64,000 nucleotides of DNA from Lingula anatina (lineage: Eukaryota > Animalia > Brachiopoda): the NCBI GenBank assembly GCA_051362555.1, contig CM120645.1:16864001-16928000 (forward strand). The letters are read 5' to 3'. A program made the translations under genes and the position numbers. Below are positions 924 through 64,000 of the stretch, piece after piece. The notes beneath the pieces are model-generated. The model had not been told where the DNA came from, did not search any database, and saw only the letters and a list, made by a program, of their open reading frames with translations. How positions within the stretch are numbered: position 1 is the first letter of the stretch; every line of letters begins with the position of its first letter.

Positions 924-3900
924 TTAAACTGGATTCACTATTCTGTCGTAAGTGATGATATATTCAGGATAGCACATTGTTGTCTCGTAAATAATAAACT
1001 CTCTGTACAACATATTGGAAACGTCTGCTATCACGGAGTCAAAATGACTGGTGTGGGTACATACGACTTGCATGCAGCCTTTAACAGTACAAGGAGGCCG
1101 TGGAAATTGTTTCTTTTCACGTGTGAGATATGGTCGACCCATGCAGGCACGAACAAGGAACATTTTTAACTCTTTCATCCCACGGTTCGTTTTTTCTGAA
1201 AAAGACAGAGATGGTGTCGCAAATAGTGAGGCCTTTACATATTTATTCACAACACAACTCTCTATTTAGCATTCCCTCTCCATATAATTTATGTAACATT
1301 TTTCTTCAGTGCCAGCATCAATGTCAATCATTTGTGAAAACGTATATACATCAAGATAAATTTCCCATCAGCAAGATCGTTAGTAAATAAAGGCAAGTCC
1401 TTTTCAAATGATTCAGTCATTGCATACATAAGTCATATACATGATGCTACTTTAGTATCTGAAGAAGGCGTTCTTTTTAACGATATGATATCGCCTATTT
1501 TGTCTTTATATTTTAATCTTTTAAAGATGTAGAAAATGACGGTCTTACTTCGTTCTGCTTCTTCTATCATGTCTAGCTCTGCCTTCGAGAAATTTTCTGC
1601 AAGGTAAATACCCCGTCCTTCGTTTGTGATCCTAAAATCAAATCCAGTGGCACATATTGTTTCAGCAACATTTGTGTTTGTCCCGTGAAAAAAATAGTAT
1701 TCATTCAGCTCATTTCTTAGGCCCTCATTTAAGATTCTGGAAAGCTTGTACGTATAGGCGTTCATCCATGGCGCTTTCTCAAAAGGATGCTGTGAACATT
1801 TCCTGGATATGTCTTGTAATTTGCAAAAATATTGGCTCCATAGTCGGGGATTTTCGACCCGCTCCACCTTCGTTATCTTAAAATCAGTGTTGTCTCTTGC
1901 ATGGATAAGCATTTTTACTTTAGACCACGACTTTGTCATCATACGATTGATCTCGTCCTGTATTTCACCGCTGCTAACATCGACTATCACGACCTTACCT
2001 TCTTGGCCTAAAAGATGAAACAGAAATTTTGTTTTATTCAAATCGGGACTACGTGATTCAATTTTTTTCGTTTCTAAAGAAGGTAAATTTCATTTATTTC
2101 AATTAATTCAAACCCAGTGAAATATTAACGGCAAAGCAATTTTGTTGATATAAAAAAGGACATGGGATATCAAAGCTTTATCAGTGCGAAACTGAGATTT
2201 ACATAATGAGGGAATGTCTAGAACTGGAAAGAATACAGTAGCTTTTGATGGTATTGCGGTCGTTTCTTTACCTGCCCATGTCTTAAAATCATTCTGAAAA
2301 TTAACCCAATAACTTGGTGCCAGTATTTCCATCTCCACCACTTCATTTGCTTCGTCTTGCTGTTTCTTTCTTTGAGCCAACATCTTTTGTCGTTTTCTGG
2401 CCATACGGAAGATTCTATAGACATCATAGATTAGACCTATAAGGCACGAGAACAGCAAGGGTAACATGGCATACACCTTGATATACAACGAACTGACGTC
2501 ACCCGGGTTGTCAAGGAAGTAAACCAGTATCACTGACGACCAACCAAAACACCAGGCATCTGAGAATTCGGGAATAACTTTCAACAGCCTTCCTGGAATA
2601 TAGAATCCATGGATGAATGGAACATGCAATGTTAAAGTCCAATCTTTTTACATTCATTTAAAGTTCATTACACACTCCAGGAAATGCTCTATATAGAAAG
2701 AAAAAAAACAGGTTTTAATCTAAATTTCAAACAATAACGGTTGTCCATGATTGTAGAAACAATTCATTTCACATTTCAAAGTTATCCAAGTACATCGTGT
2801 AGTATTTCGACAACTTACCATTGCTGGCGACATACAGAAACAGCAACGTCACATAAAGAAAAAAGGCACCAAAAACAAAAGCGAAGCCAACAGCCCATGG
2901 AAGGTCCATGTTTATACCCTGCACTATGATTGTATAGATGGCAGCACTTATCTGGTGGACAATACTGTTGTCGTATGTGGAACTTGATATCATCAAAACC
3001 GCTCCAACAAGCCACAATAAACTAAAGATGACGTATAGCAAACAGCAAATCAACAAAAACTTTCTGTCTTTACACGGTTCTGACTCACTGCACTTGCAAC
3101 ATGCACAGCAACATGTGAAAATCATGACCGGTGCAACAATCAGAATAAGGATTGTATGCAGTGTGAATAGAATAGTAAAACCAAACTCTGAATAGCCCCA
3201 ACTGTCCCATATTCCGTCCAGCCAGAGTGTGCCAAGAATCTTTGCCGCTGATCCAGCGGGAAATCCAGCAAGTAGTGTATACGAAAGATGCACGCGTTTA
3301 ACATCTTGAAACACAGCATCTTTGTCCTTGCTTTCCATCTTTTTCATATACAACACACATACGTGAATTGCTTGTGATACGTCATACAGGAGTAGCGGAA
3401 TTAATGCATATCTTGCAGGAATCGCCAGCAATAGCCCGGTACATAATGCACAAACGCCTGCCCATTTGAAAACATCCACCAATAGAGGTCGCTCTATCTC
3501 CACGAGTATCTTTACAGACCACACGCACAAGTCTTCATCTTCTTCTATTTCCACTGATGTTTTGATGGCCATGGTTTTCTCCCGTGTCAAACCAGCATAT
3601 ACTTTACTGTGTAATAAAAAAATTGTCATTTACATCCATTTTCAAATATTCACAATAAAAATTAGAGTATGGCATTTGTTATAGTGCCGAATGTAATTCA
3701 CAATGTTCTATACGTAACAATATTTAAAAAAAAGAAAAAAAAACTAAATAGATTAAAGAAAAAAATGTGACTAGGATATATTTTGAATTGATTATCATAA
3801 AGGAAAAAACAATGTCAGACTTCTTTAATTTTAGAGAAAGTAGTTACGACAACTTACTTTTTTCCTTTTCTGTAGATGCAAGTTTGGAGGCAGACACAGG

Positions 3901-5096
3901 CAATTAGAACGAGCATTAGAGAAGATGCCGATACTGTAAAAGTAAAATATGGATGGGGATGAATCTGTCTTTCTATTTCACAAAGTCTTCAGATCTGCTT
4001 GCGAAGATACGTTTTTAATGTAAAATGGGAAAATGTTTGAGTAAATTTAAAGCAAGGTGGCAAATGAAAATTCACGTATAAGCTTAAACTAAAAGCAAGT
4101 ATAATTCTTTATATGATGTATTTCATGCTTATAAAATCGTTTATATGTCAACTTATGAATAACCTCTTATCCACTGCCAGACAGTTAACCGGTAGCAAGG
4201 TAACCAATGGCAATGAAAAATATTATTGACTCAACACCTATATACATTGTTACGTAGGCTAATCCCACAAATCAATATACCAGTATTTAAATCGTTGCCT
4301 ATCAAAGGTGAAAGCAGGTCAGGCTAAGTGCGATATTTCGCATTTTATACGTTTAAGAAGACATTGTTTTGAATAATGAAATGTATTGGTTTGCATTGAT
4401 AGAGTGGTGCTGGTTTTGTTTTATGAAGTGCTGCGGTTATTAAAAAGATATCAAGTCGTTTGTCTCTGTAAAACACGGTCATTTTGCAAAAAAAAAGTTC
4501 AGTAGTATTGAGCAGTGCACACACAAATACGGGTTTTAAGACAGATACTCCAATTTTTTATCGAACCTTAGAGAAAAAAGGACTGGATGAATATATTGCA
4601 TTTCTCAAGGCCCGTGGAATGAGGACATTTTTGGCCTTGTAATGGCAAAAATGCCCTCATCGTCGATCGCGGCATCACTAGAAACTAGAATGTTGAGTCC
4701 AAAAACGGCTACATGCCGCGTTTTATTAAAAAAATAAGTAGAAAACTCACCATTTCACAGCGTAACTAATAACCGATCAAAAATAATAACGTGCAGTTAA
4801 CAATTGACGAAAATCTCGTCTCTGATGTTAATAGTTAACTTGTACCGAAAAAAAAAAGGTTTCACAATTTTAGTTTAAAAAGCTAACTTACCTGACCAGT
4901 ATATAGTTGAATATGTTTCCAAAGAGTACTTGGAATAATTCATGGTTGGGACAAGTGAATGGATGTCCCCGAGACCGGTTGTTGTGAAATAAATGTCAGT
5001 GGTACCTTTACTACTCGACCATGTTGACAACGTCGTAATGTTGCCTACTAGGGTCCCGTTGTTCCCGTTTGTCTCGTTTGTTGTTGAATTCGCCAT
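924..5096 (-). CDS. Multi-pass transmembrane protein with C-terminal PARP (ADP-ribosyltransferase) catalytic domain, ~706 aa, 6 exons (4892-5096, 3858-3933, 2819-3606, 2272-2592, 1549-2007, 924-1195)
   Basis: All junctions are GT-AG and phase-compatible (2121 nt total). PARP motifs: KVERVENPRLWSQY, NEYYFFHGT, GFDFR, GRGIYLAENFSKA, MFLVRACMG, FDSV, YREFIIYE..CYPEYIITY. Upstream: Asn/Thr-rich N-terminus with N-x-S/T sites and about 8-10 hydrophobic segments. Confidence 0.8.
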
Positions 5097-6499
5097 GATG
5101 CAGTGTCGGTATATCAGAACGCAGGGACCTGGTCACATAGGGTCTTAGATATCGGAGAGGTGGCTGCGCATCCTCCGCCTTACAGGGCTTACTAGCGTCC
5201 TGTTACCAAGGTGACGCCCTTCTGCAGCTGCGTTAGGACTGGATACCATATCTCAGATATCTGTGCTGCCAAACATTCATAGCGTCACGACTGCAGCTAT
5301 CGGGAATGATCACAGCGTGATGACAATTTCACTTAGGTAAAGTCAACCTGTTTTTCCATCTAGTCCCCTTTACTGACCTGATCTACTACAATGTCTCATT
5401 GTTACTTCGTTGTTTAATCACGCTTTCGGATTGGTTAAATCCACCGTGATTTTAAACTAAAGTAAATTAACTCTGATCCCAGTGCGTTTTAAGCTTCTTA
5501 CTGGCCATATTCCATCCGGATTATTTTTCTGATATGCCTTCTTTTTTTCAGTCATTTGAAATACATCGATCTGTATAGGCATAGTTGTTGTTTATTTACC
5601 TAACTGCATAAACATGGCTACCAACGCTTTCCTGGACTTTCAAAGAATATGACATTTAATCACCGAAATTGTTAAGGTAAAAGAGGGCGCGAACGCTAAA
5701 ACTTTCGACAAAACTGGTATTGGAAGTAATTTATAACAGTTACATGTACAACAAAATGTTTGCATTGCAAAACATGTGACAAGAAAATCAAATGCTTAAA
5801 ATGATAGAGTATTTCAAAAGCAAATTACATCTGTGATTTAAAGAAGTTGCAACCAAGACAAAATTCATCATTCAACCAGCATACGCCTTATAAGTGTTTT
5901 AAACGATTTACTGCATAATTTTTAATATTTTCTCCAGTTGGGTTCTGTTCTGGTGATCAATCGTATATTTGGTATAATAATTCGCAAAAGCTTTGTCCAA
6001 ATAAACATCGATTGAACCAGAATGCCAGAGTAACCCAAAGTTCATGATATTCAATAAAGAAGTCAATATTTGATCCTTAAAGACCAAGCATAAATTACAA
6101 AATTAAAGATAATAACTATAAGAAAAAATAGATAAAAACAAATAAATAAAAGAGATTAGATTTTGAAGATAAACCGTGACATAATACAATTCAACTGATA
6201 TGCAATAAATATATAACATTACTATTATCCCATATAGCGCAGATTTCCATCACCAGTGCGGACTACAAATCTGTGAAATCTGTGTAAAGACACCATTTTA
6301 CTTATTTCCACGACAATAGAATAGACACGAATAAGCACGGGGTAGCCTCTCGAAAAAACATGATCTCGTTTTTAAGTGGGCAACACACTTGCCATCAACA
6401 GGTTTGAGGTTATGTGTGTGTATTTGTTATGTCATATGACGGTGCGAAAAAGAGACATAGTATACCCCTAACAAAACCTCTCGTAGTACTGATTTGAAG

Positions 6500-7015: not shown

Positions 7016-7244
7016 GACCCCATTCCCATAGATTTTAGATCGATCTATCCCTGTGGGGAGTCTCACTAGATAACTGTCAGCTCTGCCGGCTTAAGCGTCT
7101 GTCCCGCCTACTAAAAGCTGTAAGGGGGTAATTAAATATGGTGCGCGCTCGGCTGACTGCAATTTAGCGTGAATCCCCAGGGAGTAAGGTACGTCGATCT
7201 AAATCTAAATCTCTGGATCGATCTAAATCTCTGAGAATGCACCC
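7016..7244. mobile_element. PIF/Harbinger (Tourist-like) MITE, copy 1
   Basis: Imperfect TIRs (cccattcccatagattttagatcgatc / gatcgatctaaatctctgagaatgcaccc), palindromic interior, TTA on both flanks, homologous to 11347-11561. Confidence 0.7.
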
Positions 7245-9139: not shown

Positions 9140-11056
9140 TCACAGTGAGATCTGAAATGTCTTAATAAATCCACTCTCCTCTGCAACAACTAACTGTTCT
9201 TGTGTGTCAAAGGCGACAGCTTGTGGATTCTTCAGTCCATCCTCCCGGGTGACGACATTCTTCAAGAAACGGCCATATTTGCTTATCATTACCACTCTGT
9301 GATTCCAGTAATCTGCAATGAATATACGCCCCGAGCTATCTGAACACACTCCCTTGGGCTGCCACAGCTCCCCGTCACCGCACCCGGGGCTCCCATAGTG
9401 GGCTATTACCTCTCCGCTAAGGGTCATCACGAACACACAGTCACCCCCATAGTCGGAGACGATGATGGAGCCGTTGGACAAGTTCACTGCGATACAACAT
9501 GGTATATTACACATGTCCAATGCAATGGAGGACAGATGTTTTCCACTGGTGGGTTCAAGTATAACCAAGCGTTTCTTAACCGAGTCACATATTACCAGCT
9601 GGTTTTGAGAGATCATGGTGACGCCGAAGGGTTCCTTCATTAACCCTTTACCTAAGGTCATTGACTGTCGACCTTGAGCGTCGAACACCCTAACCAGCTG
9701 ATCGTCGAAGATGCTGACACATATGTCTCCGTTTGGGAGCACCTCGACTCCTCCCGGCTCGTTTGCCGCCAAAACGGTCTGTATTTGTCCTGAATGCGTC
9801 AGGATCTTTACTCTGTTGTTGGACATATCCGCAAGGTAGATGTACGAATCATCCACAATCATGTCAGATACTGAGCACCTGTCTTTGTCATCCACGAGTT
9901 TTGCATTGAACGTTTGCTTCAGAAGAGGTCGCTCCTCCAGGCTTGATTGAGAGGTGCTACCAGTGCTTGAAGATCTGCTGAGCGGCACAGTGTAACCTGC
10001 TGCGATTTCTTCTGGGGTTATTACCCGTGAAAACAGTCGCCGTTCTCGCCCGGACTGCCGAGCTTCTCCAGAGTCTGTACTTAGTGATACTTGAATGTTC
10101 CCCAGCATGTCATCAAGAGATCTGTCAATCGGTTTATATGTTATCACGCGAGAGAAATCTAACATTGAAATGTTGAGTGGAATGTCGGTTTGAAGAGACT
10201 CGCTAAGATTGGATAGCCTCTCTAGCAGAGCCTTACTTTGGGACATAACAACAGCGTCCGTCCCGCTCTGAATCAGTTGCTCAGCAAACTCGCAAGCACT
10301 GTGAATGGTGACTTGTCTCATTTCAAGTTCGTCTTTGAAAGCTTCCAGTTGTTTGGTTTCGTCATCTTCAACCGAAGCCACTTCCGCGTTAAGTCTCCGA
10401 CTATGGTCCTCAGCAGCTTCGACTATTTTTCTCAAATCTTGTTTTATATCTGATACCACAGCCTCTCGCTGACGTTTTCTCTGCTCCGCAATCCGGGTTG
10501 CATTTTCCTCTTCTTGTTTTAAACGTTGCAGCTCTTGCAACGGTTTTTCAATCGCTGATTTTAGACGCTCCTTTTCATTCTCCGCGACGTCTTCCACTCG
10601 CACGCACTTGTGACCCTGATGATAGTCTATAATGCAGTCTCCGCAGACAGTTGTCTCATCCAAGGAGCAATAGTACAGTAGTTCGCGTCCAGAGTGGTTT
10701 TGACACTGTATAGTCAACTTAGATATGGCTTGCTTGACTTCGTCAATGGTCGCCTGTTCTTCGTCTTTATTTTTCTGTTGTTCTTCTAAGATTTCTATGG
10801 CTTTGATAAAGGCAAAGTTTTTCTTCAAAGTCCGTAGGCCACCCGACGGTACGGCGTTGGGTTCTCTGCACAGTGGACAGAGAAACTGAAAACCATCTTG
10901 TTCATTTTTATGCTGAGTTCTATTCCCGTGGTCTGTTATACACTTCAGACAGAAGGTATGATTGCACGTCAGCACTCGAGGGTCCTCATATTCTTCTAAA
11001 CAGATGCTGCAAGTTAGTAGATTATCGACAAAAGCAGTAGCTAGCGCTTTCGCCAT
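9140..11056 (-). CDS. Intronless TRIM-NHL E3 ligase (RING, B-box, coiled coil, NHL repeats; TRIM2/3/71-like, no filamin domain)
   Basis: 643-aa ORF 9140-11071; start probably MAKALA at 11056 by alignment with the paralog. RING CSIC..CNHTFCLKC..CPLC; B-box CQNH..YYC..VCGDC..HQGH; NHL repeats such as GDGELWQPKGVCSDSSGRIFIADYWNHRV. Confidence 0.92.
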   Translation of the reverse strand: MAKALATAFVDNLLTCSICLEEYEDPRVLTCNHTFCLKCITDHGNRTQHKNEQDGFQFLCPLCREPNAVPSGGLRTLKKNFAFIKAIEILEEQQKNKDEEQATIDEVKQAISKLTIQCQNHSGRELLYYCSLDETTVCGDCIIDYHQGHKCVRVEDVAENEKERLKSAIEKPLQELQRLKQEEENATRIAEQRKRQREAVVSDIKQDLRKIVEAAEDHSRRLNAEVASVEDDETKQLEAFKDELEMRQVTIHSACEFAEQLIQSGTDAVVMSQSKALLERLSNLSESLQTDIPLNISMLDFSRVITYKPIDRSLDDMLGNIQVSLSTDSGEARQSGRERRLFSRVITPEEIAAGYTVPLSRSSSTGSTSQSSLEERPLLKQTFNAKLVDDKDRCSVSDMIVDDSYIYLADMSNNRVKILTHSGQIQTVLAANEPGGVEVLPNGDICVSIFDDQLVRVFDAQGRQSMTLGKGLMKEPFGVTMISQNQLVICDSVKKRLVILEPTSGKHLSSIALDMCNIPCCIAVNLSNGSIIVSDYGGDCVFVMTLSGEVIAHYGSPGCGDGELWQPKGVCSDSSGRIFIADYWNHRVVMISKYGRFLKNVVTREDGLKNPQAVAFDTQEQLVVAEESGFIKTFQISL

Positions 11057-11346
11057 CTTTAATATTTTCATAAATAGGCAGCTCTATTGTGTTCCTGCCC
11101 AAAATAAGCTAGCTGTAGCTTAAGTAAACACCATGCGTGTGTGCTCGCTTTTGCATTTTTGTTCTTTCACTAAGGGGGTCGGTAACTTGTTTCAAAAAGC
11201 CTTCCTTAGCTGATGACTTGGGTCTTATGGGTTGGTTCACGAAAGTTCTCTTTCAAGTGTGTGACATTTTCAGTTTTTACACCTTAGAAAAGTGAGACAG
11301 GTCAACTTGACATTAGCTGGTGCCAGTTGCTCGCTTCTGCATTTAA

Positions 11347-11561
11347 GGCTCTGTTCTCACAACTTTTAGATCGATCTATCACCGCGGGGAGTCTCACTAG
11401 ATTACTGTCAGATAATCCGCCTTAAGTGTCCGTCCCCGCCTACTACAAGCTTTAAGGGGTAATTAACTTTCGTGTCCGCCCGGCTGACAGCTATTTAGCG
11501 TGAACCCCCAGGGAGTTAGGTCGATCTAAAGTAGGTCGATCTAATCTATGAGAATGGGGTG
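11347..11561. mobile_element. PIF/Harbinger (Tourist-like) MITE, copy 2
   Basis: Same internal sequence as 7016-7244 (ggggagtctcactaga...ccgcctacta..aagct..tttagcgtgaa.ccccagggagt). TAA on both flanks. Confidence 0.7.
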
Positions 11562-12681
11562 TAAGTCTGGCGCAGAAAAAGATCAACTGAATGCTTTTTT
11601 ATATGTACAGAAAGACGGTCCGTTTTAAACCTGTTGTGTGTTTCTCTATTCACAAAAAAATTGTGCAAATACAACAGGGAATCTGAACGAATAAACAGGA
11701 TTATCACCGATAACAATTATAAACGACCATAGTAAAGGAACACATTGTGAAAGAAAAGGCCCAAACATAGTTTGGAATAAAATTGTAGGCCTATGTAAAT
11801 TTACAATCCGTCCTATGAAAAGAATAACTTTTCTGCAATAAAACTGAAAACATCTTAAGAAAAGGCCTTATAAATATGATTTTATGTTATATCTATTGGA
11901 GTGATTTACGGTGAAGACGCTGGTTAGACAATTTTTATTTAAATGATGGGGATAATTAAATGTACGCAGCAATTATGCTTCAATAAAAATGCTGGTTGTT
12001 AAAATTTGGCATGGTTAAAAAAATATTTAGAGAGAATGGGTATTTCATAAGTGATTTATTTTATCAGTCTAAAAACAGAAATTAATTAAGTAATAAATTA
12101 ATTAATTGATTCACCGCAACCTATTATATTGTATGCATGTTACGTTCTTTACACATTGGAGTAACAAGATTATGCTTAATTTTTCAAACTTTCCCAAGAA
12201 CTTTAAATATCTCGACACGCGTTCAAATAGCCTATCATCCTTGCTTTGGAAGTCTCTTGGATTATTCAAATAGCCAAAACAGTAACGCTTGAAACTCAAG
12301 GTAACATCTAGTGAATGCAAATAATGAGAATGGTCATTCACTTTTTCACACTAAACATGCACACTGAAATCGATATTTAGGCCTTTTAAAAATGTCGTTA
12401 GCTCCAATAATTTGACAAAAATTCTCCGTCACTTTTTCCACAGAAATATTAAATTTCACATCAAATATATGCACACAAATAATACTTTTAAATATAATTT
12501 GTCACTTTTAGAACAACTGTTGTTGTTGTTGTTGTTTTTTCAACGGAATAATAAAACACATTAAGATGTTTATCGACACTTCCGTTACCCTCATGAGTCA
12601 TGATTCATTTTACATGAAAATGTGCTTTTCTTGATGCAACGCCATCTAGCGAACGTTATTCGGTATCCAAGAGAAACTAAC

Positions 12682-13425
12682 ATGGCGGACATCGAGCCGA
12701 CCGATAGCCAACAGGGGTTTGCGACTCCCCTTTCTAGCTATCCAGTGGCTTATGAAGACCAGTTATTGATGCAGAGTAATGCCAATATTCTAACCTTAGA
12801 CGATTCAAGAGATCCAGGACCAGAACTGCCCGACAGCGCTCTTGGAGGCCAAGACGATTTTGATCCCGACCGCGATTCTGATGACAGCGGCAACAGCACA
12901 GATGACGAGGATGTGCAGGTATCTTGAAAATCATTTTTTATTTCTTCATCCGTCGTTTCATTCAAGGGAAATATATAGAAAGCACATTATCTTAAGTCAC
13001 GTAGTCATTTGCCAGTCCAAAGTACATACAGATCATGAGATGTGTATACTACAGTACCAAAACCTCTATGTACAGTACAGTGAACATACTAACAGTTGGA
13101 TTAACGATATCAGTTACCTAGTTATATACTTTGCTTTTATATCCACCAGATTTCTTGCAAATGACCGTTTCATGTGTTTACTTGCGACCGAATTATTTTT
13201 TTCTAGTATTTTGTGCTGTGTTTACAATGCTGTATTGCACATTTAAGTATGACCGTGAACGTTGATGCCAGTGTTTTTACGAAAGTCTTTTGGTTTCAGC
13301 TGTCACCAGGTGGCATTTTAGATGAGGAGACCATTGCCAGAGGTCTCTCCAATCTGGGAAGATCAGCAGATGGCACACAGCAGGTGTATTTGCATCTTAC
13401 AATACCAGTGAGTATATCACCAGTG

Positions 13426-13464
<39 letters not shown>

Positions 13465-13508
13465 GCCTATCTTTTTTGACAATACTTTTTAATTTCCCTA
13501 CCTCCTCT

Positions 13509-13549
<41 letters not shown>

Positions 13550-16500
13550 TGTATATTATTCAATGTTAATTTTCATTATCATTCTTTCTTATAGGGTCTT
13601 GGCTTGCAAGATGTCACTATTTTGAATGAATATATTCACCTACAGAAGTTGGAAATCCCATACAATGATATTACAGGTAAAATGTCCCATCTATCATTTT
13701 TTTAAATTTATTGGTTCATTTTCATTATTTGATGTACCTGCCTACCTATTTGATATACATCCTAGTTACAAAGAGTTATATATATATGATAAATATATAT
13801 TGTGTTGGATTTCATGGGTCTTGTAAAATGTAATAATGGCCACAATCAATAACCTTTTTCTTCTTCCTGTTTCAGACCTCAGTCCACTTGGTCAGATGCC
13901 ACATCTCCTGATACTGGACGCCTCACACAACAAAATTAGTAAGCTGCTGGACTTCAGTCCTCCGCGGAACCTGAAGGAAGTTGACCTGTCCTTCAACTGC
14001 ATCACAGAGATGGCTGACCTCTCTGCTCACCACTACTTGAGGAAGTTATGTCTAGACAGTATCCTTGATGTGATAGATATATTTCATGTTATGATATGAT
14101 TATTTAAATTGATTTATTGATTAACTTGTTATATTACCACTTAAGGGATTATGGTCATTTTTTTTTTTTTTTTGCATAAATTATCTTTATGTTAAAATGA
14201 TTTTTGTAGTGTTCATTTTTGTATTTTATTTAGTGGCCATATGTCAACCACTTACAAAAATTGGTTAACAAATGGGAAAAAATATGGCTCATTTTTTTTT
14301 TATAATTAGCTTACTTTGAGAAATTTACAAGTGTCAGATCACTTGATAGTTTTCAGTTGATTTTTTTTTTTGGTTTTATGCTGATCTTGCCCCCAAGCTT
14401 TTCTTAACCCATGACCAGACAACCAAATCAGTGAAATGAGAGGACTGAGTCACTGTAAAAGACTGAGCCACCTCAGTCTGGCACACAACAAAGTGAACAA
14501 GATTCAGGACTTGGACAATTTGCCCATTAAACATCTTAATTTGGTAGGTATTCAGAATTGTTATGTTGTAGTCTGTACAGAATTGCCACTTCAGTGTTAC
14601 ATTTAATTGCAGAATGTTTTTTCTTCCCTATCTGTACTTATTGCTTCAATCAGCAATTTGTAGGAACTTGTAAAAATCTTTTTTAACTAGATTTTTAAGA
14701 AATAACAATAAAATCCTTACCTTATTTCTGAGATGTTTCTTTCTCACCATTACTTTCTGTTTTAATAGAGATCAAATGAAATCAAGAAGATAGAAAACCT
14801 AGAAACTCTCAAGTATCTTTTGGTAAGTAGATAGTTATTATTATCATTATTATTTTTGTGAGTAAAATTTCAGTTACGATGCAACATTTTATTTTACAAA
14901 AGGTTTTAATTATATTAGCTTAGAGTATAATAGACAACTTGAATGTAACAATTTAAGCACCATAAAGCAATACAAAGTAGTAATAATGATAAAAGATCAG
15001 AAAAAGGAAATTTGAGAGTAGGAATAATTTAGAATTACAAGGATATTAAAAAGTAGAATTATTGTAAGTCCACACTTTATTTTTGCATTTCCATTTCAGT
15101 ATATCAATCTGTCTGGCAACCAGATCAGAAGCTTGAAGGGACTGGAGAGACATGACCTCCTGGAAGATATTGAGATGGAGGCAAATGAGGTATATGTTAG
15201 AAGTCATGAACCTCTCTAAATGTCCAAGTAAAGTCCAAGTAAAAGAAAATGAAATGAATAATGAAATATTTAGAAATCAGTACTGACAAACAGAAGATTG
15301 CGAGCTAAAATAATAATAAAAAAAAAAAAAACAGAATAGAGAACAGTTGTATAATTCTAAGAAATATCAAGAATAAAAAGACTTTGGATGAAAAAAAAAA
15401 GTTTGAACCTTAATGTCCAGGGACTGTAACAAGAGGTTCAGTTAAAGCTTTCAGCCTCCCTTTGCTCTTTCACCTTTCTTTGATCTTGTCATACTGTTGG
15501 TTTAGGTATACAGGTGTATATCCTTGAAAATAATTGAAAAAAAAACCCGGGCACAAAATTTCCCATACATTCAGTCACACTCTCACTTTTTTTCCAGATC
15601 ATAGACATCAATGAGATTCAGTATGTGCGACAGTTGCCCATGCTGCGCCAGTTTGATCTGCGTAGGAACCCCATCCAGGAGCTCCCTAACTACAGACTGT
15701 CCATACTGTATCAGCTACAGAGGTTAACAGAACTGGACAGACACAAAGTGGAGCCTGAAGAGAAGGTATTTATCAATTTATTAATTTCAGGTGGGCTTTG
15801 ATAGTCTTGGGCTGTCTACACCATTAACACGGAACCCACCCAAAAGGCAAGCAAAATTGAAGCTAGGCAATTAAATAGGTCTTTCATTTGGGTCAAAATG
15901 TCATGCAACATAGGTAGCAGACATGTTTAGTCTTTTTAGAAGTGATTTACTCTTTTACCATGTAAAATGACAAAAATACCTTTGGATAATGGTGACTATA
16001 TCTCTTTTTGGCAGTAATGGTAGATTCTTAGATCCTGTTGGATTGAAGAGCCATCAGAGTAAAAGAGCAAAAAGGTTTTTAGGGGAAGGGGCCACTTTGG
16101 TCTTTAGTAAGTGATATAATTCACACATATTGCTCTTCGAAACAGAATGTATTTGGTTCAAATTAAGTGAGTTGCCTATGTCCACTGTCCACTTTTCAGG
16201 TGGCAGCCAAGAATCTGTTCCACCCTCCTGCTGAGGTCGTAGCTGCACGTGACCACATCATGCACACCGTCTTCTCCTTCCTGCAGTCTACGAGGATTTA
16301 TGACAGGTATGGAGTGTGACATTGTGTCTTGGATAGCCATATAACACATGTTTATTAATCTGTTTGAAAGGACCAATGCTGATATTATATGGAAAAATCC
16401 TCGGCCCACACAACTTTCAGGTATTTTGTTCTCGACATAAGCCATGATATATCTGTTCTGGACATAAGCCATGATAAAATGAATATTAGACCATTTCAAA

Positions 16501-17967
16501 ATGTGTATATCAATCACTAATATCATTGCAGCACCCTGCCCAGTATAGAGACCCCCTACCCAATGCTAGTATTAGTGGGACCCAAGGGATCTGGCAGGAG
16601 AGACCTGGGTCTCAAACTGGTGGATGAATTTCCAGATTACTTTGGATATGGGTATGTAAGAATCATTATAATTGTAAAAATTGGAGGGTTTTTGCACTTG
16701 TGCCCGTGGTAAGAAGCAAACATGCCAAAGTTTACATGTATTCACTGGTGTCCAACTTACTTGTTTGTGGGTGCATTTAGTTGTCAGGGTGTTAGTTAAT
16801 CTGCCACCTCATAGACATCATAAACAAAGACATTGAGATTTTTAATATTGTCCAAGTTTTGTTCATTTTGGCACATAAATGTTAAACATTGCAGGGTGTC
16901 CCACACTACCAGAAGAATGCGCCATGATGAAGAAGATGGAAAAGATTACCATTTTGTGTCCATTGATCAGTTTGAATCAGAAATCAAACATGTAAGTGAC
17001 TTTAGTGGATGGAATACATTAAAGCAACATGGCTGGTTCTCAATCCTGCACACAAATCTTGAATACATGTTAGATTTAGTTTAGTCAATTAGGGAATGAC
17101 CAGGACTGAAATTGTGCTATGCATCCTTTATTTATATTTTCCTCAAGTCCCAAAACATGAAATGTGCACATAAATATACTTACATTTGGCAACCCTTGAG
17201 CTAACAGGATCTAAACTGGAATCATTGAAAGAGTTGATTTCTTTGCAGCTTTACAAGTATAATCTATGTACATATTCTAATTAATCGCAAATTTTTATCT
17301 TGTTTCCAACAAGCTACTCATTCAGAATTCACCATGTTTTATTCCTTACAAAACACATCGACTTTTACCCAACCCACTATTTAGAATTTAGGAGTATTAA
17401 CAAAACATTTTAGCAAGTTCAGTTTTAACAAAATATTTTTATTTTCATTCCATTATGAAATTTTATTTTTACAATATAGATTTAATGTGCAACCAAATGT
17501 TCTTCCAGGGCAAGTTTATCCAGACATACCTGCACCAGGGGGAGTACTATGGCCTGACAATGGAGGCTATAGAGAGTGTGGCCAGGGAGGGACTGGCTTG
17601 TGTGGTACACATGGAGCTGGAGGTAAGCAGTGGCAGATTTAAAGGTTGTCAGGGGGGTCCTGACCCCCACCCCACCCTTCAGTTTCTGAAAAAAAAAAAT
17701 CACACCAATGGTCCCCTCTTGAAATTAGAATTTTGACTAGCTGAATCATAGTTCTAAACTGTACCAAATGGCACCATTTGCCCTCTAAAATACCTAAAAC
17801 CCACTCCAAGAAGGGGGAGGGACTGGGAGGATGCACAAGTTTTTATTAAATTAAGTTTTTTTAAGAGTTATTCTTTCTATGTCTACATTATAAAATGTAG
17901 GACAATTGGTGTAAATCTTAACTGTAAATCTTTGACATTTTTTCATTTAAAACAAATCATAAGATGT

Positions 17968-18031
<64 letters not shown>

Positions 18032-18387
18032 TTAGACTATTAAACATCAGTATCACAATTGAATAAAGTTGAGTTGAGATGAGTTGAGTTGAGTATCATA
18101 ATTGTCCTTTCCCATACCTTAGGGAGTGCTGACCTTGAAGAACACCTACTTGGAGCCCAGGTATGTGCTGGTGCTGCCACTGAAAAGGGAAGTACATGAG
18201 CGTCGTATGCGCGACATGGAGCTGTTCACTGAGAACCAAATTGAAGCCACGCTAGCCAGGACACAGGTGTACATAGACTATAATCAGGAACACCCGGGCT
18301 TCTTTGACATGGTCATTCCTAGTGGTGAGTTTGCATTTCTTAAACATGACTTTTCTTCTTTAGAAGGTTATTTGAATTTCCACTCAC

Positions 18388-18421
<34 letters not shown>

Positions 18422-19994
18422 GCTGAGAGCATTTGGCCAATATCCTTGGCCTTGGTAACAACAGACTTTTGTTGGTCCTCATGCCTGCCAGAAGCTGAGC
18501 ACTGGTGTTTATCCCCATGGCTCTATGGGCAGTAAATCCTTACCCTTTGGTGGCCATATTAACCAGTGGGTTAAAACAACTTTGGCCCAGACTGTTACCA
18601 TAATAATTTACATGTTTTGAGTTTTGCAGTGATCTTCATGTTATTAAGAGTAAATGTCATGGTGGATTGCTCTCAAATATTTTCAGCTGTTTTATAGGGA
18701 TATTTACACATTTTTTCTTGCTCATACCTTTCCACAGATGACATCTCGGAGGCCTACAAAAAACTGCGTCGCTTGGTCATGGACTACCTTGGCATCAACG
18801 TCCCCACGCCCACGGAGTCCGAGTACCCAGACCAGGACACCAGTAGTGTCACAGGGACTAAGCTGACAGACACAGGGATGGGGGCCAGGACCTGGTCACG
18901 CCCCAGTATTCCTGACAGTACATCACAGCTACAGGCCAGCACTGGGGGAGGAGTCGGGAGCAAGGCACACACACCAGTTGGAAGGGGGGTTGTGGTGAGT
19001 GTGCTTTAAAAGATTTTACAGATAGAATGTTACGTTTTAGTACCAATAAATGTTTGAAAAAATTTTTACAAGCTGTATTGATGTCATTATCATTGTGGTT
19101 TATAGGAAGCAGCCTCATTGAGTCGTAGGAAGAGTGCAGCCAAAGAAGCAGTAGCAGGCCTAAAACCAAGCATTTATGATGAGATCTTGAAATAGTAAGT
19201 GATGTTTGTCCCAAAAAATAAGTTCATTGGATTCTTTTATCGTTTTCCATATATATCTGTGTTAAGAGAAAAGAATACACGTACATTTACTAATGTATAT
19301 ATCAGTGTAATTTTTTATGTTTATTTCATCTTCAAATATGTAAGTAATCAAAATATTGAATCCAATTTTATGGAGAAGATGATTAGTTAAAATTGCATAT
19401 TACTTTTCAGGTGCATTATAAAATAGTAATATCTGAATATTTACCTTATTTTTCTCCAGCACTCCCACAACGGCTCCTGCAATGGAAACCAATGGCCTGG
19501 GTGAAGGCAATGAGGTCACAGGTCAAAGGTCAAGGTCAGCCCCTGGAAAGGCCTTCACCCCAGATGACCCCAATAATATGGACCAACTCCCTCCTAGCTC
19601 CCCAGACTCAAGCCACCAGACATCCAGGACCAGCACCAGTCTCTCTAATATATCCTCAGCCCAAAATGAGGCTTTTGAGGAAACAGAGTCCCAAGATGGC
19701 TCAGGGCAGAATCAGCCACCAATTGAGTTACCATCAGAATCCATGGATCCCATGGAACTGATGTCTCCAGACAGGGCAACAAAAAGTGGGTCTGGGTTTG
19801 TGTTTGCGCCCCCTCCTGGAGGTTCTGGGGGTTCGAGGCCCCACTCTGCAGGCTCTATGGAGCTGGGTTCTTATGATGTCAACTCACTCCCAGCTGTTAA
19901 CAACTCTGGCAGACCTGGCTCACACAAACATAAAGTGCTGCCACCTATTGGTGGGTCTCCTACACCACAGACAAATACAATGCCTGAATATTAG
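12682..19994 (+). CDS. LRGUK: Leucine-rich repeat and guanylate kinase domain protein; 16 exons (12682-12918, 13300-13407, 13595-13676, 13876-14058, 14419-14543, 14769-14822, 15100-15189, 15598-15765, 16200-16306, 16532-16651, 16895-16991, 17509-17622, 18123-18324, 18738-18994, 19106-19194, 19460-19994)
   Basis: Acidic N-terminus; GLSNLGRSADGTQQVYLHL; SDS22-like LRRs (LLILDASHNKI, LKEVDLSFNCI); LRR cap NPIQELPNYRL; GK domain LVLVGPKGSGRE, VSHTTR..EEDGKDYHFV, YYGLTMEAIESVAREGLACVVHMELEGV, EHPGFFD. Confidence 0.92.
14059..14418 (+). other. U12-type (minor spliceosome) GT-AG intron in LRGUK
   Basis: 5' site GTATCCTT. Branch-point-like TTCTTAAC about 10 nt before the terminal AG, no polypyrimidine tract. 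Removal keeps the frame (LD-N-NQI). Confidence 0.88.
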
Positions 19995-21705: not shown

Positions 21706-40433
<18,728 letters not shown>

Positions 40434-41061: not shown

Positions 41062-41136
<75 letters not shown>

Positions 41137-43127
41137 TGCCAGGGGCAGGTAGAACCAGCTGGGTAGCTCAGTAGGTAAGAGCACTCGCCCTGTAAGCGCG
41201 GGTCCCGGGTTCGATTCCTGGTCTGGTTGGTGATTTTTCTGCACTCACCCCAAATCGCTACAATGGTGGCAGCAGTGTTGCGAGATAGGGCTCGCGTCTT
41301 TTGGCATTTGGGGGGGAGGAGTGTAGTGCCAGGGGCAGGTAGAACCGGCCGGGTAGCTCAGTAGGTAAGAGCACTCGCCCTGTAAGCGAGGGGTCCCGGG
41401 TTCGATTCCTGTTCTGGTCCGTGATTTTTCTGCACTCACCCCAAATCGCTACATATATATAAAATAAACACAGAAAAAGGTCATTTCCAACAAAATAGAA
41501 ATATATGAAAGTGAAATATATTACTAGGTAATTAAAATTGCTGAATCAACTTAACAAATCGGCACAACTAGTTTAATTGTCATTGGGTCGGCTGCCACAC
41601 TGGCAACTGGCTATTCTTGGCTGGCATTAATATATGTGAAATAATGCATGAAATATCAGCTGAGAGATAGAGGTGCACATAACTAAAATAATGGCCAGTT
41701 ACATTTGTAGCACATTCAGCGTAATGCAGGGGCTCTCAATTAAACTTCTGTGTACCTCTCACCTCAGCACGCTGCACTCAGCCATTTCTTTTAAGCGCTG
41801 GCACAAATAGTCTGTATAATCAGAAAATGCTATTGTGAGTGCTATTGCATGGAACTTGGTCCTAGTGTTTGATAGGTTATTGTAAATAACCAGATTGGGT
41901 CACTTGCAGTAAATCCCAGCATGTGCTGATTACATGTTTGTGTAATTGACATTCATGGCTCACACGACATGGTTAGATGGCCTTGTTTTATCTCGAAGTG
42001 TTATTTTTTCTTTGCTATAGCAACCCAGCCATAGCTTTATCCAGTGATGGCAGCACATTTTTATGCTGGCACCCACCAAAGAAATTTCCCTATGAAAGTA
42101 CAAAGGTAACTTTTATTTAATTGCTAAGATATTATAATCATCAATTATTGATATATAATTTTACGTTTATGCCAAAATTTATTTAGTATGAAGTGTTTGA
42201 TTCTTTCCTAAGATATGAGATCTGTTCAAAATTGTTATAAAAAGGTTTGAAAATAATTTAAATATTTTTGTTGTTGTCTTTTAATTTAGCCCGTACCAAG
42301 ATTTGAAGAAGCAGTTAGAGAGGTATTTCATTATTTGTTTAGTATTATTTGTTGTTGATTGGTTTTAGCCTGGGAATCAGTGTAGAAGTAAATTCTTTAA
42401 AAGCAAAAAAAATTGTATTGATATCTCGGCTTATCAATGTATTTTCATGATAAAAAAATCATAAACATAATAAATAACAATCCTCAGATTCAGAATAAGA
42501 TGAACTCTTTTTACTCAAAGTTGAAAAGTTCTATTTATTTGTCAGAGAAATACTCTAATTCTACCTAATTCTTAATTCTTCTTTCCAGGGTGACTCTGCC
42601 CTCAAAGTTCAGTATCGTTGGGATTACCACAAGAGACAGCGTCCCTCTGGTCCTACAACACGGGAACTGTCTGAGATGTTTTATACCTACAGATGGGAGT
42701 TCAGACCTAGGTAATGTAGCATTAGATCTTTTCAACCTGAACCAGGGCCTGTCCACATTTCAGTTTTTTTTTTTTTTTTTCCAAATACAATTATCCCCAA
42801 TAAATTCTGTTTATGATGTATAATAAAAATGACTTGGCAAATAAATGAAATAAAATGATTCGATGTGGCAGGAAAAAAATTGCAAGCAAGTATAAAATTG
42901 TTCTTCCTGAATAAATTCAAAAAAAGGAAATGAGTTTTTTAAATTAATTTTAATTAATTTTTTTATTTATTGGGAGATTGGGGTGTATTTTTAGTGTAAA
43001 ATCAGTTATATGCATTTCAAATGTCTGTTATCATGGCAGTGCTAATCATTTTACTTGCATGAATTTCAGGCCAGGGAAATATAAATATAGAAAACCAAAC
43101 CCTCCTCGAGACAGGGATGGTATGTAA
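40653..43127 (+). CDS. MRPL42: Mitochondrial ribosomal protein L42 (mL42); exons 40653-40737, 40913-40973, 42021-42105, 42290-42322, 42589-42710, 43070-43127
   Basis: Spliced product: presequence-like MATCTKLSRFLAS..., then IALSSDGSTFLCWHPPKKFPYESTKPVPR and GPTTRELSEMFYTYRWEFRPRPGKYKYRKPNPPRDRDGM*, matching recalled mL42 motifs. Not visible as a whole in the ORF track because the exons are short. Confidence 0.88.
41132..41453 (+). mobile_element. TRIM (terminal-repeat retrotransposon in miniature) with tRNA-like LTRs (Helenus/TRIMp3-like)
   Basis: LTRs 41132-41262 and 41322-41453 (TGTA...TACA). PBS TGGTGGCAGCAGTG at 41264-41277. PPT GGGGGGGAGGAG at 41310-41321. TATA on both flanks. Each LTR has A box TAGCTCAGTAGG and B box GGTTCGATTCC. 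Confidence 0.88.
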
Positions 43128-61500: not shown

Positions 61501-62228
61501 CTGGGGAGTACTGACAATTAAATTCCTCAAATATTTCATGCTTGTTAAGTGGACCTCATTATCACATACCAACCTGCAATGATTATTTAATACCAAGTTA
61601 AAGTTTATATCAGCTGTGTAACAATAACAGTAACTACAATGCTCTGGTGTCTATCAAGTCATCCCTGTCAGGGAATGAGAATTAGGGTGATATTGCAATG
61701 AGTGATAATGACAATGAGAGTGAAAGCTACATGAGCATATTAGGCCAATTACAGGGATGGGACTACCATTTAGTGAAAAGTCAGAAAACATGGTATGGGG
61801 TCCAGGGGGCTGCCTATGTCAATGATATTTTTGGCTCCCAAAATGTCAGAAATCCACCGATAGTCAGAAAAATCTCATCCCTGTAATTATGAATATTCAT
61901 GAAAGTGAAAAGTACATGTACCCAGACTGCTCCTAGTGTTGTCTGCAGGACTGTTCTTCTTAATCCCACTGACTGCCTTGGTGGCCTTCATCGGACCTGA
62001 CTGGGACATCCCAGGCTTGGAACAACTCTTGTTCATACTAAGACTCTTTTTCTGGATCTCTCCAGGTTTTAATAGGGCCAACTTGGTCTTGATGGTTGGA
62101 GCTTTCAGGCCAGAGCGTTGGGATGAGTTGGAACAGTTGGAAATGTTGGAGCAAACGCTGGAGGCAGAGGAATCGCTGTCATGTCTCTCACGCTGGGAGT
62201 ACGTTGGGGTAGGTTTTTGTAATTTGGA
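58526..62228 (-). CDS. 3' part of a Ser/Pro/basic-rich disordered protein (possibly GTSE1/PSRC1-like microtubule-associated); exons 61922-62228, 61045-61137, 60759-60894, 60009-60140, 59685-59826, 58526-58669; 5' end outside the window
   Basis: GT-AG bounded open exons. SxIP-like motif (RSMLPTP) and similar SGLKAP/SKLQKP, many SP/TP sites, terminal basic RWSPIRKRK...KRTK*. Family identity is not secure. Confidence 0.6.
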
Positions 62229-62262
62229 CTGAAAATATAACAACCTAATAAGTAATATACTG

Positions 62263-64000
62263 AACAAGGCAGCAAAGCTGTCAAATGTACAGACAAAAAA
62301 ACAGAAAATAAAGATGCAAAAAAAGGTCATTTTGTCAATTTTGATGCAATAATAAATAATGCTTATAATAGCACTGTCAGTCAACACTGAATTTTAATCA
62401 TGCACAACAGGTAACATGGTCAATAACAGGAGTGGACCCGGAGATATTTTCTGACAGTATTCCAAAGTATCTATGTTGATCCATCCTCCATTTTGATGGT
62501 CTTCCAACAGAAAAAAATAGATACCAGTCAATATAAACTTAATAACCTGTCTTCAAGAAGACCCAGAAGATGGTCTCAATCCACCCCTTCAATAAGATTA
62601 CAGTTTCAGGACCATGAGAGACTATAGTCACATGATGAAAGTCTCAATATTTGAAAAATGATGACAGTGCATAAAATAATTTTATATAATGTTTAAAGAC
62701 ATAAAAAACAATACAATTGCTTATGTGGAAATACAGAAAATGTGCAGAGCCTCGAACGGATGAGAGTTAAAAGTCACAAATGCATGTGTTTGAGAAAAGA
62801 TTGTAAAGGAAAACATAACAAAACGAGAAAACCACCGAGTGTGCAGACCTCTGCCAAGGCAGCAATTGTTGATTATTGTTGATTATTGATTGATTATTGA
62901 GCCAGACCACCACTAAAAACTAATCATTGTCCTCTTTGGCCCAATTCTGACAGTTCCTGAAAATTTCAGCAAAATCGGTCCATAACTTTTTGAGTTATGT
63001 TGATGACAGACAAACAAGGGTGAAAATATAACCTCCTAGGCAGAGCCTGAGGTAAATATAATTTCAATAAAGCTGCTATTCAAACTTTTAATCTTTGATT
63101 ATATATATATATAATAACCTGCATAATTATCACTGCTTCCTTATTATTAATCTAGCAGAGAGCTTAACTTTTGGGAGTTTACAAGGAAATATCAACAAGT
63201 GTGCTTTATGTAATCTTCAATGGCCTATCAATTAGGCAAATGACTTTATAACTCAGAAATTAGCTAAGTGATACCCAAGGGATATTAACAGACTGACCCT
63301 CTCAAAGGTCTTTCAGGCCCATAAGTCACATCTTCAGAAAAGCACAAAACAATAATGCACAAAATAGGAGACTACCAATTCTGATGCAATAATACATTAT
63401 GTTTTACTGCACAGTCAACATCAAATTTTAATTATGCACAACAGGTAACAACGACGAAAGTAAAATCATAAGGCTTCAGGCCCATCAGAGTTCAAGTTTA
63501 TACTTAGAAAGTGCCAGAATGAGAAAAATGAAAATTTCACACAAAATTGCATAAATTCAATAATAAATGATAACCCAATTGACCTGGCTTTCTAATTTGA
63601 ACTGCATGCCAATCCTAAAAATCATACTTGTAAGTTAAAAATAATAATAAGTAACACAGTTTTCTTTTCATAATGTTTGCAGTAGCAATGCAAAAATATT
63701 GTTGTCAATTTTGATGTAACATTACATAATAAATTATAGAATAATTATCACCAATCTTTGATTATTGACAATAAATAGCATGGACATGTAGAAAACTTGA
63801 TTACCATTCGGCTTCATGTCCATGGGAGCTCTGAGTCCCACAATGAATATGCCAAAAAGATAATGAATATTTCACTCAAATGTATAACTTCCAGAAAAAG
63901 AAGCCAATTAGACTGCTTTTCCAACTCATTCTGTGTTTCTTTTTTAAAGGTTTGACAGTCATAACACTGTTTTCCCATAATGCTCATCATAGCAGCAGCA
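62263..64000 (+). mobile_element. Second, more diverged copy of the 27388-29730 element family (runs off the window)
   Basis: Near-identical 5' end aacaaggcagcaaagctgtcaaatgtacagacaaa...aacagaaaataaagatgcaaa, followed by degenerate versions of the ~340-bp unit (aattttgatgcaat.. / ttttgatgtaacattacataat). Confidence 0.65.
62826..63055 (+). mobile_element. Short HINE/MITE-like element nested in the larger repeat
   Basis: Contains acctctgccaagg near the 5' end, (gattatt)n, tgaaaatttcagcaaaatcggtccataactttttgagttat, gacagacaaacaa, and the 3' hairpin-like aacctcctaggcagagcctgaggt. Confidence 0.5.

Follow-up and report, generated by a model that had tools for sequence, protein, structure and literature searches.

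Can a membrane protein of many passes and an ADP-ribosyltransferase domain be encoded together by one animal gene, and if so, is the enzyme part of such a protein still able to work? This question is raised by a gene at positions 924..5096, on the minus strand, of a 64-kb stretch of the Lingula anatina genome (64,000 nucleotides, contig CM120645.1, positions 16,864,001 to 16,928,000; the window from here on). A sequence-only reading of this DNA had proposed a receptor ADP-ribosyltransferase with a tankyrase-like PARP domain. To our knowledge, animal PARPs are either soluble or tail-anchored, and a polytopic protein with a cytosolic PARP domain would offer a direct path from a membrane event to ADP-ribosylation. 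Judged from sequence, the membrane region and the PARP-type domain are one gene, shared with intact relatives in the same species. The copy in the window has lost residues of the NAD pocket, a point that the sequence-only reading did not raise, and very probably has little or no activity.

Six exons and one gene

The six in-phase exons that had been proposed were borne out. Joined, they form a coding sequence of 2121 nt (706 amino acids plus the stop), every exon boundary carries a GT donor and an AG acceptor (phases 1,2,1,1,1; introns 1 to 5 of 958, 251, 226, 264 and 353 nt), and the 706-codon frame contains no stop, compared to a mean of 45 and a minimum of 25 when the coding sequence was shuffled 1000 times. 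By tblastn, the window holds a single copy of the gene. Exon 1 (4892..5096) begins with the start ATG, within a reading frame that opens at 5132 after an in-frame upstream stop, and encodes a 65-residue Ser/Thr-rich N-terminus that is predicted to be luminal or extracellular; it is 81% identical to the L. anatina relative P0001 (XP_013395278) and is covered by reads from relatives. Exon 2 (3858..3933) encodes membrane helix 1 (residues ~66-90), which is predicted to be an N-out signal anchor and has basic residues after it. Exon 3 (2819..3606) supplies residues 95-356, the bulk of the membrane core, with six predicted passes and one likely luminal helix; its alignment identity is 90% with P0001, 44% with the membrane-only paralogue P0008 (XP_013400356) and 23% with the distant relative P0009. 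Exon 4 (2272..2592) adds the final two membrane helices, a basic linker (residues 415-434; 2419-2360) and a P-x-YW motif, here PSYW (residues 449-452; 2317-2306). The ADP-ribosyltransferase domain starts in exon 5 (1549..2007), with His571-Gly572 (1687-1682), Tyr598 (1606-1604) and Ala600, and ends in exon 6 (924..1195), with R-P-P-C, the catalytic Glu682 (1001-999) and the stop codon (926-924). Exon 5 is the most divergent exon (74% identity with P0001), and exon 6 is 90% identical to P0001 and is covered by reads from the RNA runs X7-X9. Compared to its paralogues, the window copy has private indels of +1 and -3 and a shortened loop near residue 506, none of which breaks the frame. The C-terminus is four residues longer than that of P0001 (927-938), and reads from one RNA run (X7) diverge at 939. 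Two other acceptors for exon 4 were rejected: 2559 is in frame, but P0001 in RefSeq and the reads use 2592/2593, and 2688 runs into a stop.

The domain behind the P-x-YW motif is a PARP domain, as had been claimed: the exon-5 frame matched PF00644 with 30.2 bits (cut-off 26.7), the exon-6 frame weakly with 16.1 bits, and P0001 with 63 bits. Indirect evidence joins the membrane region and this domain into one gene: exon 4 holds both P-x-YW and the last two helices, donor 2271 and acceptor 2007 are in phase, four L. anatina RefSeq models (P0001, P0017, P0002 and P0003) carry the same fusion, and P0009 encodes it in one frame. The first Met of exon 5 is residue 485, inside the domain, and the intron upstream is only 264 nt long. 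The remark that the fusion is easy to miss did not hold, since RefSeq and UniRef already model it in L. anatina, where the proteins are labelled uncharacterised or Poly[ADP-ribose] polymerase.

Transcription was followed in raw reads of six out of nine runs from the same species (X1, X2, X4 and X7-X9), of which X4 yielded 0 reads. At an 80% threshold, X7-X9 gave 86-135 reads per run, 16-22 of them on a repeat fragment in intron 1 and the rest exonic. None of these reads was 99% alike, which points to diverged relatives or paralogues as their source. In these relatives, three of the five junctions were seen, at a depth of ~5 or less. For exon 2-3, a three-read loose end at 3606 in X8 translates to the end of exon 2, and two further reads bridge 3606 to 3861. 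The exon 3-4 junction at 2592/2593 was crossed by five reads in X7 and two in X9, and exon 5-6 by five reads in each of these two runs; the latter leave at 1583 and rejoin at 1168/1169, and the letters around their join differ from the window. Codons at which the window copy differs from the relatives' reads lean towards synonymous changes, 18 of 29 in the membrane exons and 7 of 14 in the PARP exons, counted in the displayed rows, which are a biased sample.

Some reads depart from the gene model. At 2376, four X9 reads exit exon 4 past the basic linker into ~110 letters that are absent from the window even at 80%; they may come from a paralogue whose linker is shorter, as it is in P0003, or from a membrane-only isoform. 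At 1122, four X9 reads exit exon 6 into letters that do not match the window; these probably stem from a paralogue that has diverged further, or from a retained intron. The fragment in intron 1 (4105-4151, 47 bp) attracts many RNA reads that are less than 90% alike, with loose ends that four runs share (56 in X2), and is likely part of a repeat that is transcribed, or of the untranslated region of another gene.

Relatives of the fusion and its membrane module

A search with exon 3 gave three matches among 2219 candidates, all of them L. anatina RefSeq models with a PARP domain and 87-91% identity, and P0017 is a fourth fused L. anatina model, 97% identical to P0001. The closest systems in this species are LOC106162518 and LOC106152260 (XP_013395278.1, XP_013381232.1), LOC106162513 and LOC106152261; at least two paralogues are arranged in tandem. 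These models share the architecture and the length of 706 amino acids with the window copy, at 81-90% identity per exon and 74% in exon 5. Against 1.84 billion representatives exon 3 matched four proteins, namely two of the fused RefSeq models, P0008 and P0009, and the range of the module thus looks narrow. P0008, from L. anatina, has 425 amino acids and the membrane part only (46% identity to exon 3), and the module also stands alone in P0011. P0009 has 647 amino acids in a single frame on a 2603-nt contig, is 26% identical over the membrane core (E 1e-5), shares the membrane motifs and ends in a PARP domain (PF00644, 56 bits). N-terminal sequons recur in P0008 and P0009, to which the N-terminus is 29-38% identical. 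A metagenome scan with the family alignment A1 gave 93 pattern matches, 0 of which were confirmed.

A search with the PARP region retrieved seven proteins among 285 candidates. In P0005 and P0006 a different N-terminus of ~4 passes, in P0005 weakly TMEM37/claudin-like (Pfam E 0.001-0.01), is followed by P-x-YW and the same type of PARP domain with an intact pocket; P-x-YW precedes the PARP domain in P0007 as well. By BLAST the Lingula PARP domain is nearer to P0005/P0006 (39-40%) than to P0009 (26%). In a PARP-domain tree of 10 rows, P0009 sits on a long branch and five of the seven inner branches are open, and the tree does not give the order of the fusion events. Taken together, P0009, P0008 and P0005/P0006 indicate that the fusion predates the Lingula lineage, that the membrane module can stand alone, and that there are at least two ways in which this PARP type has been fused to a membrane part. 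The second of these, ~four helices weakly like TMEM37/claudin followed by the same PARP type, was seen in P0005, P0006 and P0012-P0016. The same PARP type further occurs with a macro domain and a second PARP domain in the annelid Dimorphilus and with a protein kinase in a metagenome protein (P0004 and P0007).

The membrane part was described from sequence as a short N-terminus with five sequons and no signal peptide, followed by 8-10 helices, a Cys cluster, a basic linker and P-x-YW, and each of these was found in its place. The sequons (NST3, NET7, NGT13, NIT19 and NYS53) all lie in exon 1, and by hydropathy, the only measure applied here, residues 1-65 contain no hydrophobic stretch, thus a signal peptide is not evident. 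Alignment-averaged hydropathy gave nine segments and a weaker tenth at 309-326, which is likely luminal; all lie before residue 415. With segment limits set by hand, the numbers of Lys and Arg in successive loops are 1, 7, 1, 6, 0, 4, (0, 0), 2, 0 and 9. With 309-326 outside, this alternation predicts by the positive-inside rule an N-out protein of nine passes with its C-terminus in, that is, a signal-anchor helix and four hairpins, with luminal sequons and a cytosolic PARP domain. Two Cys of the cluster TCCCACCKC (residues 258-266; 3090..3116), located at a predicted cytosolic helix end, are invariant in A1, and the cluster is a possible palmitoylation site. Polar residues within the predicted helices are kept down to P0009 (G-F-P-x-G-x-x-A-K, W-x-D-G, P-H and, in helix 3, D-x-x-Q), which suggests that the membrane module does more than anchor the protein.

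This orphan nine-pass module has no Pfam family above cut-off, either in the window fragments or in the relatives. Matches to Fig1, Spore_YabQ, FtsX and Prominin were below cut-off and were treated as generic helix matches, and no 7tm family of G protein-coupled receptors was matched in Pfam; nine passes are predicted rather than seven. The structural checks that had been proposed brought nothing usable: AlphaFold2 models had a mean predicted local distance difference test score (pLDDT) of 39.1 or 39.6 (9- and 14-row alignments), the PDB yielded nothing for the membrane-only model in Foldseek at E 0.001, and structure matches in the Atlas had a TM of at most 0.3. Comparison of hairpins with hhalign (4-5 rows each) detected no internal repeat, 0 of 6 hairpin pairs scoring above column-shuffled controls. 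Repeated helical hairpins are a feature of the Tmemb_185A family (PF10269); four hairpins would fit the predicted topology of the Lingula module, but the hhalign comparison gave no sign that they are repeats. By ESM language-model features, the membrane core is nearest to Tmemb_185A clusters (0.87, 188 of 256 features; the family is annotated on 24-55% of their members), and P0008 taken whole is nearest to TMEM117 (0.80), not TMEM185A. PF10269 was not listed for five window fragments, P0008-P0011 and P0017 at E up to 10, nor for P0001-P0003 at E up to 1, where the HMMER filters, which discard most matches above E 0.1, limit the negative at E up to 10. Membership of TMEM185A is thus a lead only, unconfirmed by Pfam. 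The family includes TMEM185A, TMEM60 and TMEM203 (PMC4815072; here and below, papers are cited for the accessible part of their text), and plant Tmemb_185A-RING ligases likewise fuse the module to a C-terminal enzyme (PMC8169666). If the lead holds, it would also be relevant that TMEM203 is reported as a STING partner (PMC6697806).

The NAD pocket and the function of the family

The catalytic triad H-Y-E is kept in the window copy as His571, Tyr598 and Glu682, provided that 1549 is spliced to 1195, which Glu682 requires; Gly572, Ala600 and Lys605 are also retained. Two lesions lie between these residues. Three residues of the D-loop are deleted before G-x-G-I-Y (1612..1621), where relatives have G-L-F-G-K or T-A-A-F-G-K, and the end of exon 5 (1549..1582, with an in-frame GT donor at 1548) is replaced, which puts Ala606 and Asp609 in the places of the Ser and Tyr of S-D-Q-Y. 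These correspond to Ser904 and Tyr907 of PARP1, which together with Gly863 and Ala898 form the nicotinamide pocket (PMC8002165). All four pocket residues are kept in P0001, P0017, P0002 and P0003. The D-loop and S-D-Q-Y are intact in these L. anatina models and not in the window copy, and the D-loop gap and both substitutions set it apart from all four PARP-bearing Lingula proteins and from P0005/P0006. No S-D-Q-Y-like coding stretch or micro-exon was found in the six frames of the window. According to the accessible part of PMC8002165, the only human PARPs without an aromatic residue at 907 are PARP9 and PARP13. We therefore consider it very probable that the window copy has little or no activity, and the proposed membrane sensor coupled to ADP-ribosylation or NAD+ consumption is unsupported for this copy.

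The lesions appear to be real. X1 contains one read pair that is 99+% alike, with the first mate on the plus strand, and that covers ~70 bases below 1602; at least one of its reads crosses 1613 and 1583, and the totals fit an end at the 1549 splice point or other placements. Since the pair crosses both lesions, they are transcribed and an assembly error is unlikely. At 1613, reads of X7 and X9 have loose ends that encode GLFG and DTAAFG, and thus the D-loop is kept in expressed relatives.

The label tankyrase-like proved non-specific. Exon 5 alone matches PARP14, PARP12, PARP10 and tankyrase-2, PARP14 best, and the best PDB sequence matches of P0001 are near equal, PARP12 with 45.3 and tankyrase-2 with 43.0 bits, among 46 sequences that include no PARP16 chain. 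Ankyrin, SAM, WWE, CCCH and macro domains had no Pfam match in P0001-P0003 at E up to 1. Tankyrases (clade 4) carry ankyrin and SAM, and the Lingula fusion has neither. Clade-3 PARPs (PARP7/10-15) have WWE, CCCH or macro domains and have lost the catalytic Glu, which in nearly all of them is replaced by an aliphatic residue (PMC2964712), whereas the Lingula fusion lacks those domains and keeps the Glu, as do all aligned PARP rows. Human PARP16 (clade 6) also holds its PARP domain at a membrane, but by a single C-terminal anchor (PMC4245714) and not by nine N-terminal passes. The window fusion is thus by sequence a PF00644 member that in its build is neither a tankyrase, a typical clade-3 PARP, nor PARP16-like. 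Its damaged pocket resembles that of PARP13/ZAP and PARP9, which have lost the stacking aromatic and kept the fold; in these two, Gly863 and some of the triad are missing as well, in contrast to the window copy with its H, G, Y and E, and the lesions arose independently.

A further likeness in architecture, by description only, is with a PARP12-like protein of the sponge Amphimedon queenslandica and clade-3 PARPs of Rhizaria, in which an N-terminal transmembrane domain precedes the PARP domain; the accessible part of the 2014 paper (PMC4245714) gives neither the number of passes nor the membrane family. In the literature searched, mainly titles and starts of abstracts and exclusive of subscription papers and supplements, no polytopic PARP and none of these Lingula genes is described, and the architecture is unusual, but the fusion itself is present in RefSeq and the sponge protein has been noted.

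The explanation that we favour, with moderate confidence, is that the family consists of membrane-tethered ADP-ribosyltransferases whose membrane module sets location and substrates, the window copy being a non-catalytic member. Helix 1 would act as an N-out signal anchor followed by four helical hairpins, and the basic linker would hold the transferase on the cytosolic side of the endoplasmic reticulum or plasma membrane. Intact relatives, with H-Y-E and the Gly/Ala/Ser/Tyr pocket, would bind NAD+ and ADP-ribosylate themselves or adjacent membrane proteins, with the module determining location and substrate choice analogous to the tail anchor of PARP16. In the window copy, nicotinamide stacking and hydrogen bonding would be impaired, and the fold and binding surfaces would stay, leaving a PARP13-like protein with little or no activity that might act as a scaffold or a decoy, or restrain active paralogues.

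Several observations weigh against this explanation. The exon 1-2 junction and exon 4-5, which links membrane part and PARP domain, were not listed in the six runs, so that of the junctions in the proposed gene only the three described above were seen, and these in relatives. The 1549 splice of the window copy was likewise not in the reads; unspliced, the frame would stop at 1433, short of Glu682. Reads of the window copy's own type are scarce, two in X1 (the one pair) and 12 at 95-99% in X2. The topology was drawn from hydropathy and charge only, and the AlphaFold2 models were of no use for it. An otherwise invariant membrane Pro is Leu243 in the window copy, which fits decay equally well. 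The retention of His571, Gly572, Tyr598, Ala600 and Glu682, together with Ala at position 904 in the active PARP16 (PMC8002165), makes residual activity possible. Finally, P0009 keeps Tyr907 but carries Cys, Thr and Ala in place of Gly863, Ala898 and Ser904, respectively; this distant member may be inactive too, and dead or altered forms may be frequent across the family.

An alternative that we hold to be unlikely, but the best of the rivals, is a receptor enzyme in which the nine-pass module senses a ligand, an ion or the state of the membrane and switches the cytosolic transferase on, with the window copy as a dead, sensing-competent partner or decoy. Nine passes exceed what an anchor needs, and polar residues within the helices are common down to P0009 at 26% identity. 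The module occurs by itself in P0008/P0011, and in P0005/P0006 another, 4-pass claudin/TMEM37-like module sits on the same PARP type. Moreover, divergence among intact paralogues is faster in the PARP part, with 72-82% identity versus 88-97% in the membrane core (72% versus 88% for P0001-P0003). However, Pfam searches of the window and the relatives gave no match to a ligand-binding domain or a receptor family, conservation of the short N-terminus is poor, and the neighbouring TRIM-NHL gene is no evidence, as the 64-kb window has two such genes. A more far-reaching version, likewise doubtful, is that these proteins form an undescribed animal family of receptor ADP-ribosyltransferases, in which a new or TMEM185-like nine-pass module gates a cytosolic H-Y-E transferase that possibly makes poly(ADP-ribose) at the membrane; the claudin-like module would have been captured independently, and dead copies would act as brakes or decoys in a pathway of stress or of host-pathogen interaction.

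It is rather improbable that the window copy is a duplicate in early decay, in which unrelated DNA took the place of the end of exon 5, a chance GT restored the frame and function is gone. The lesions do cluster in the active site and the native S-D-Q-Y is absent from the window; private changes in exon 5 exceed those of P0001 (15 versus 5, p 0.04; 19 versus 6, p 0.015), Pro243 has become Leu, own-type reads are very few, and the tandem paralogues of L. anatina make redundancy plausible. Against this, 706 codons are free of stops and frameshifts, and each private indel has a length divisible by three. P0003 has 21 private changes in exon 5, more than the window copy, indicating that fast change there is family-wide, exon 6 (3 versus 2) and the membrane part (13 versus 13) show no excess, and the read differences lean synonymous in the biased sample described above.

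That the window copy is a still-active transferase with a remodelled NAD pocket or changed substrate we regard as very unlikely. H-Y-E, Gly572, Ala600 and Lys605 are kept, exon 6 is 90% identical to P0001, and the Met and Ile in the replaced stretch might, speculatively, partly cover the nicotinamide; yet Asp replaces the stacking aromatic, the Ser hydrogen bond is lost, the D-loop is shortened, and in the accessible part of PMC8002165 the aromatic is missing only in the inactive or weak PARP9 and PARP13. That the membrane and PARP exons are two genes, or their join a gene-model artefact, is most improbable of all: the unseen exon 4-5 junction, membrane-only P0008 and the four X9 reads leaving exon 4 at 2376 would fit, but helices and P-x-YW share exon 4, donor 2271 and acceptor 2007 are in phase, and four RefSeq models and P0009 are fused.

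The proteins form an experimental series of intact fusions (P0001-P0003), the likely dead window copy, membrane-only P0008, distant fused P0009 and the independent claudin-like fusion of P0005/P0006. The window copy is probably not the active one, and probably a poor choice for an activity assay. By analogy, a role in immunity is plausible. PARPs of antiviral defence show fast evolution and turnover and do not always need catalysis, as the catalytically dead domain of PARP13 still aids restriction (PMC4038475); in Lingula, too, divergence is faster in the PARP part than in the membrane core, even among intact paralogues.

Neighbouring genes and further observations

The sequence-only reading drew its immune hint from a neighbouring TRIM-NHL gene. 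This gene (9140..11083, minus strand; RING, B-box, coiled coil and NHL by Pfam, in a single frame) is not part of the fusion gene and shows no evidence of a functional link to it. The hint is weak, as a second, unlinked gene of the same composition follows 24 kb further (32953-34815, minus strand, single frame). The first TRIM-NHL gene is flanked by a direct repeat of ~200 bp, 79% identical, at 7033-7239 and 11364-11556.

Exon-like frames of one gene extend over 12604-19994 on the plus strand; within it, 17401-18458 resembles a guanylate-kinase-type region and had no Pfam match at E 0.01. Two weak matches on the minus strand were below cut-off: APEH_N at 36921-37253 (E 0.0008), possibly an exon of an acylamino-acid-releasing enzyme, and STING_TM at 61887-62393 (E 0.0013), at the hydrophobic start of a probably intronic frame and likely due to chance. 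CA, GA and CA/TA microsatellites, at ~26770-27080, 17990-18040 and 41080-41140, give rise to spurious open frames.

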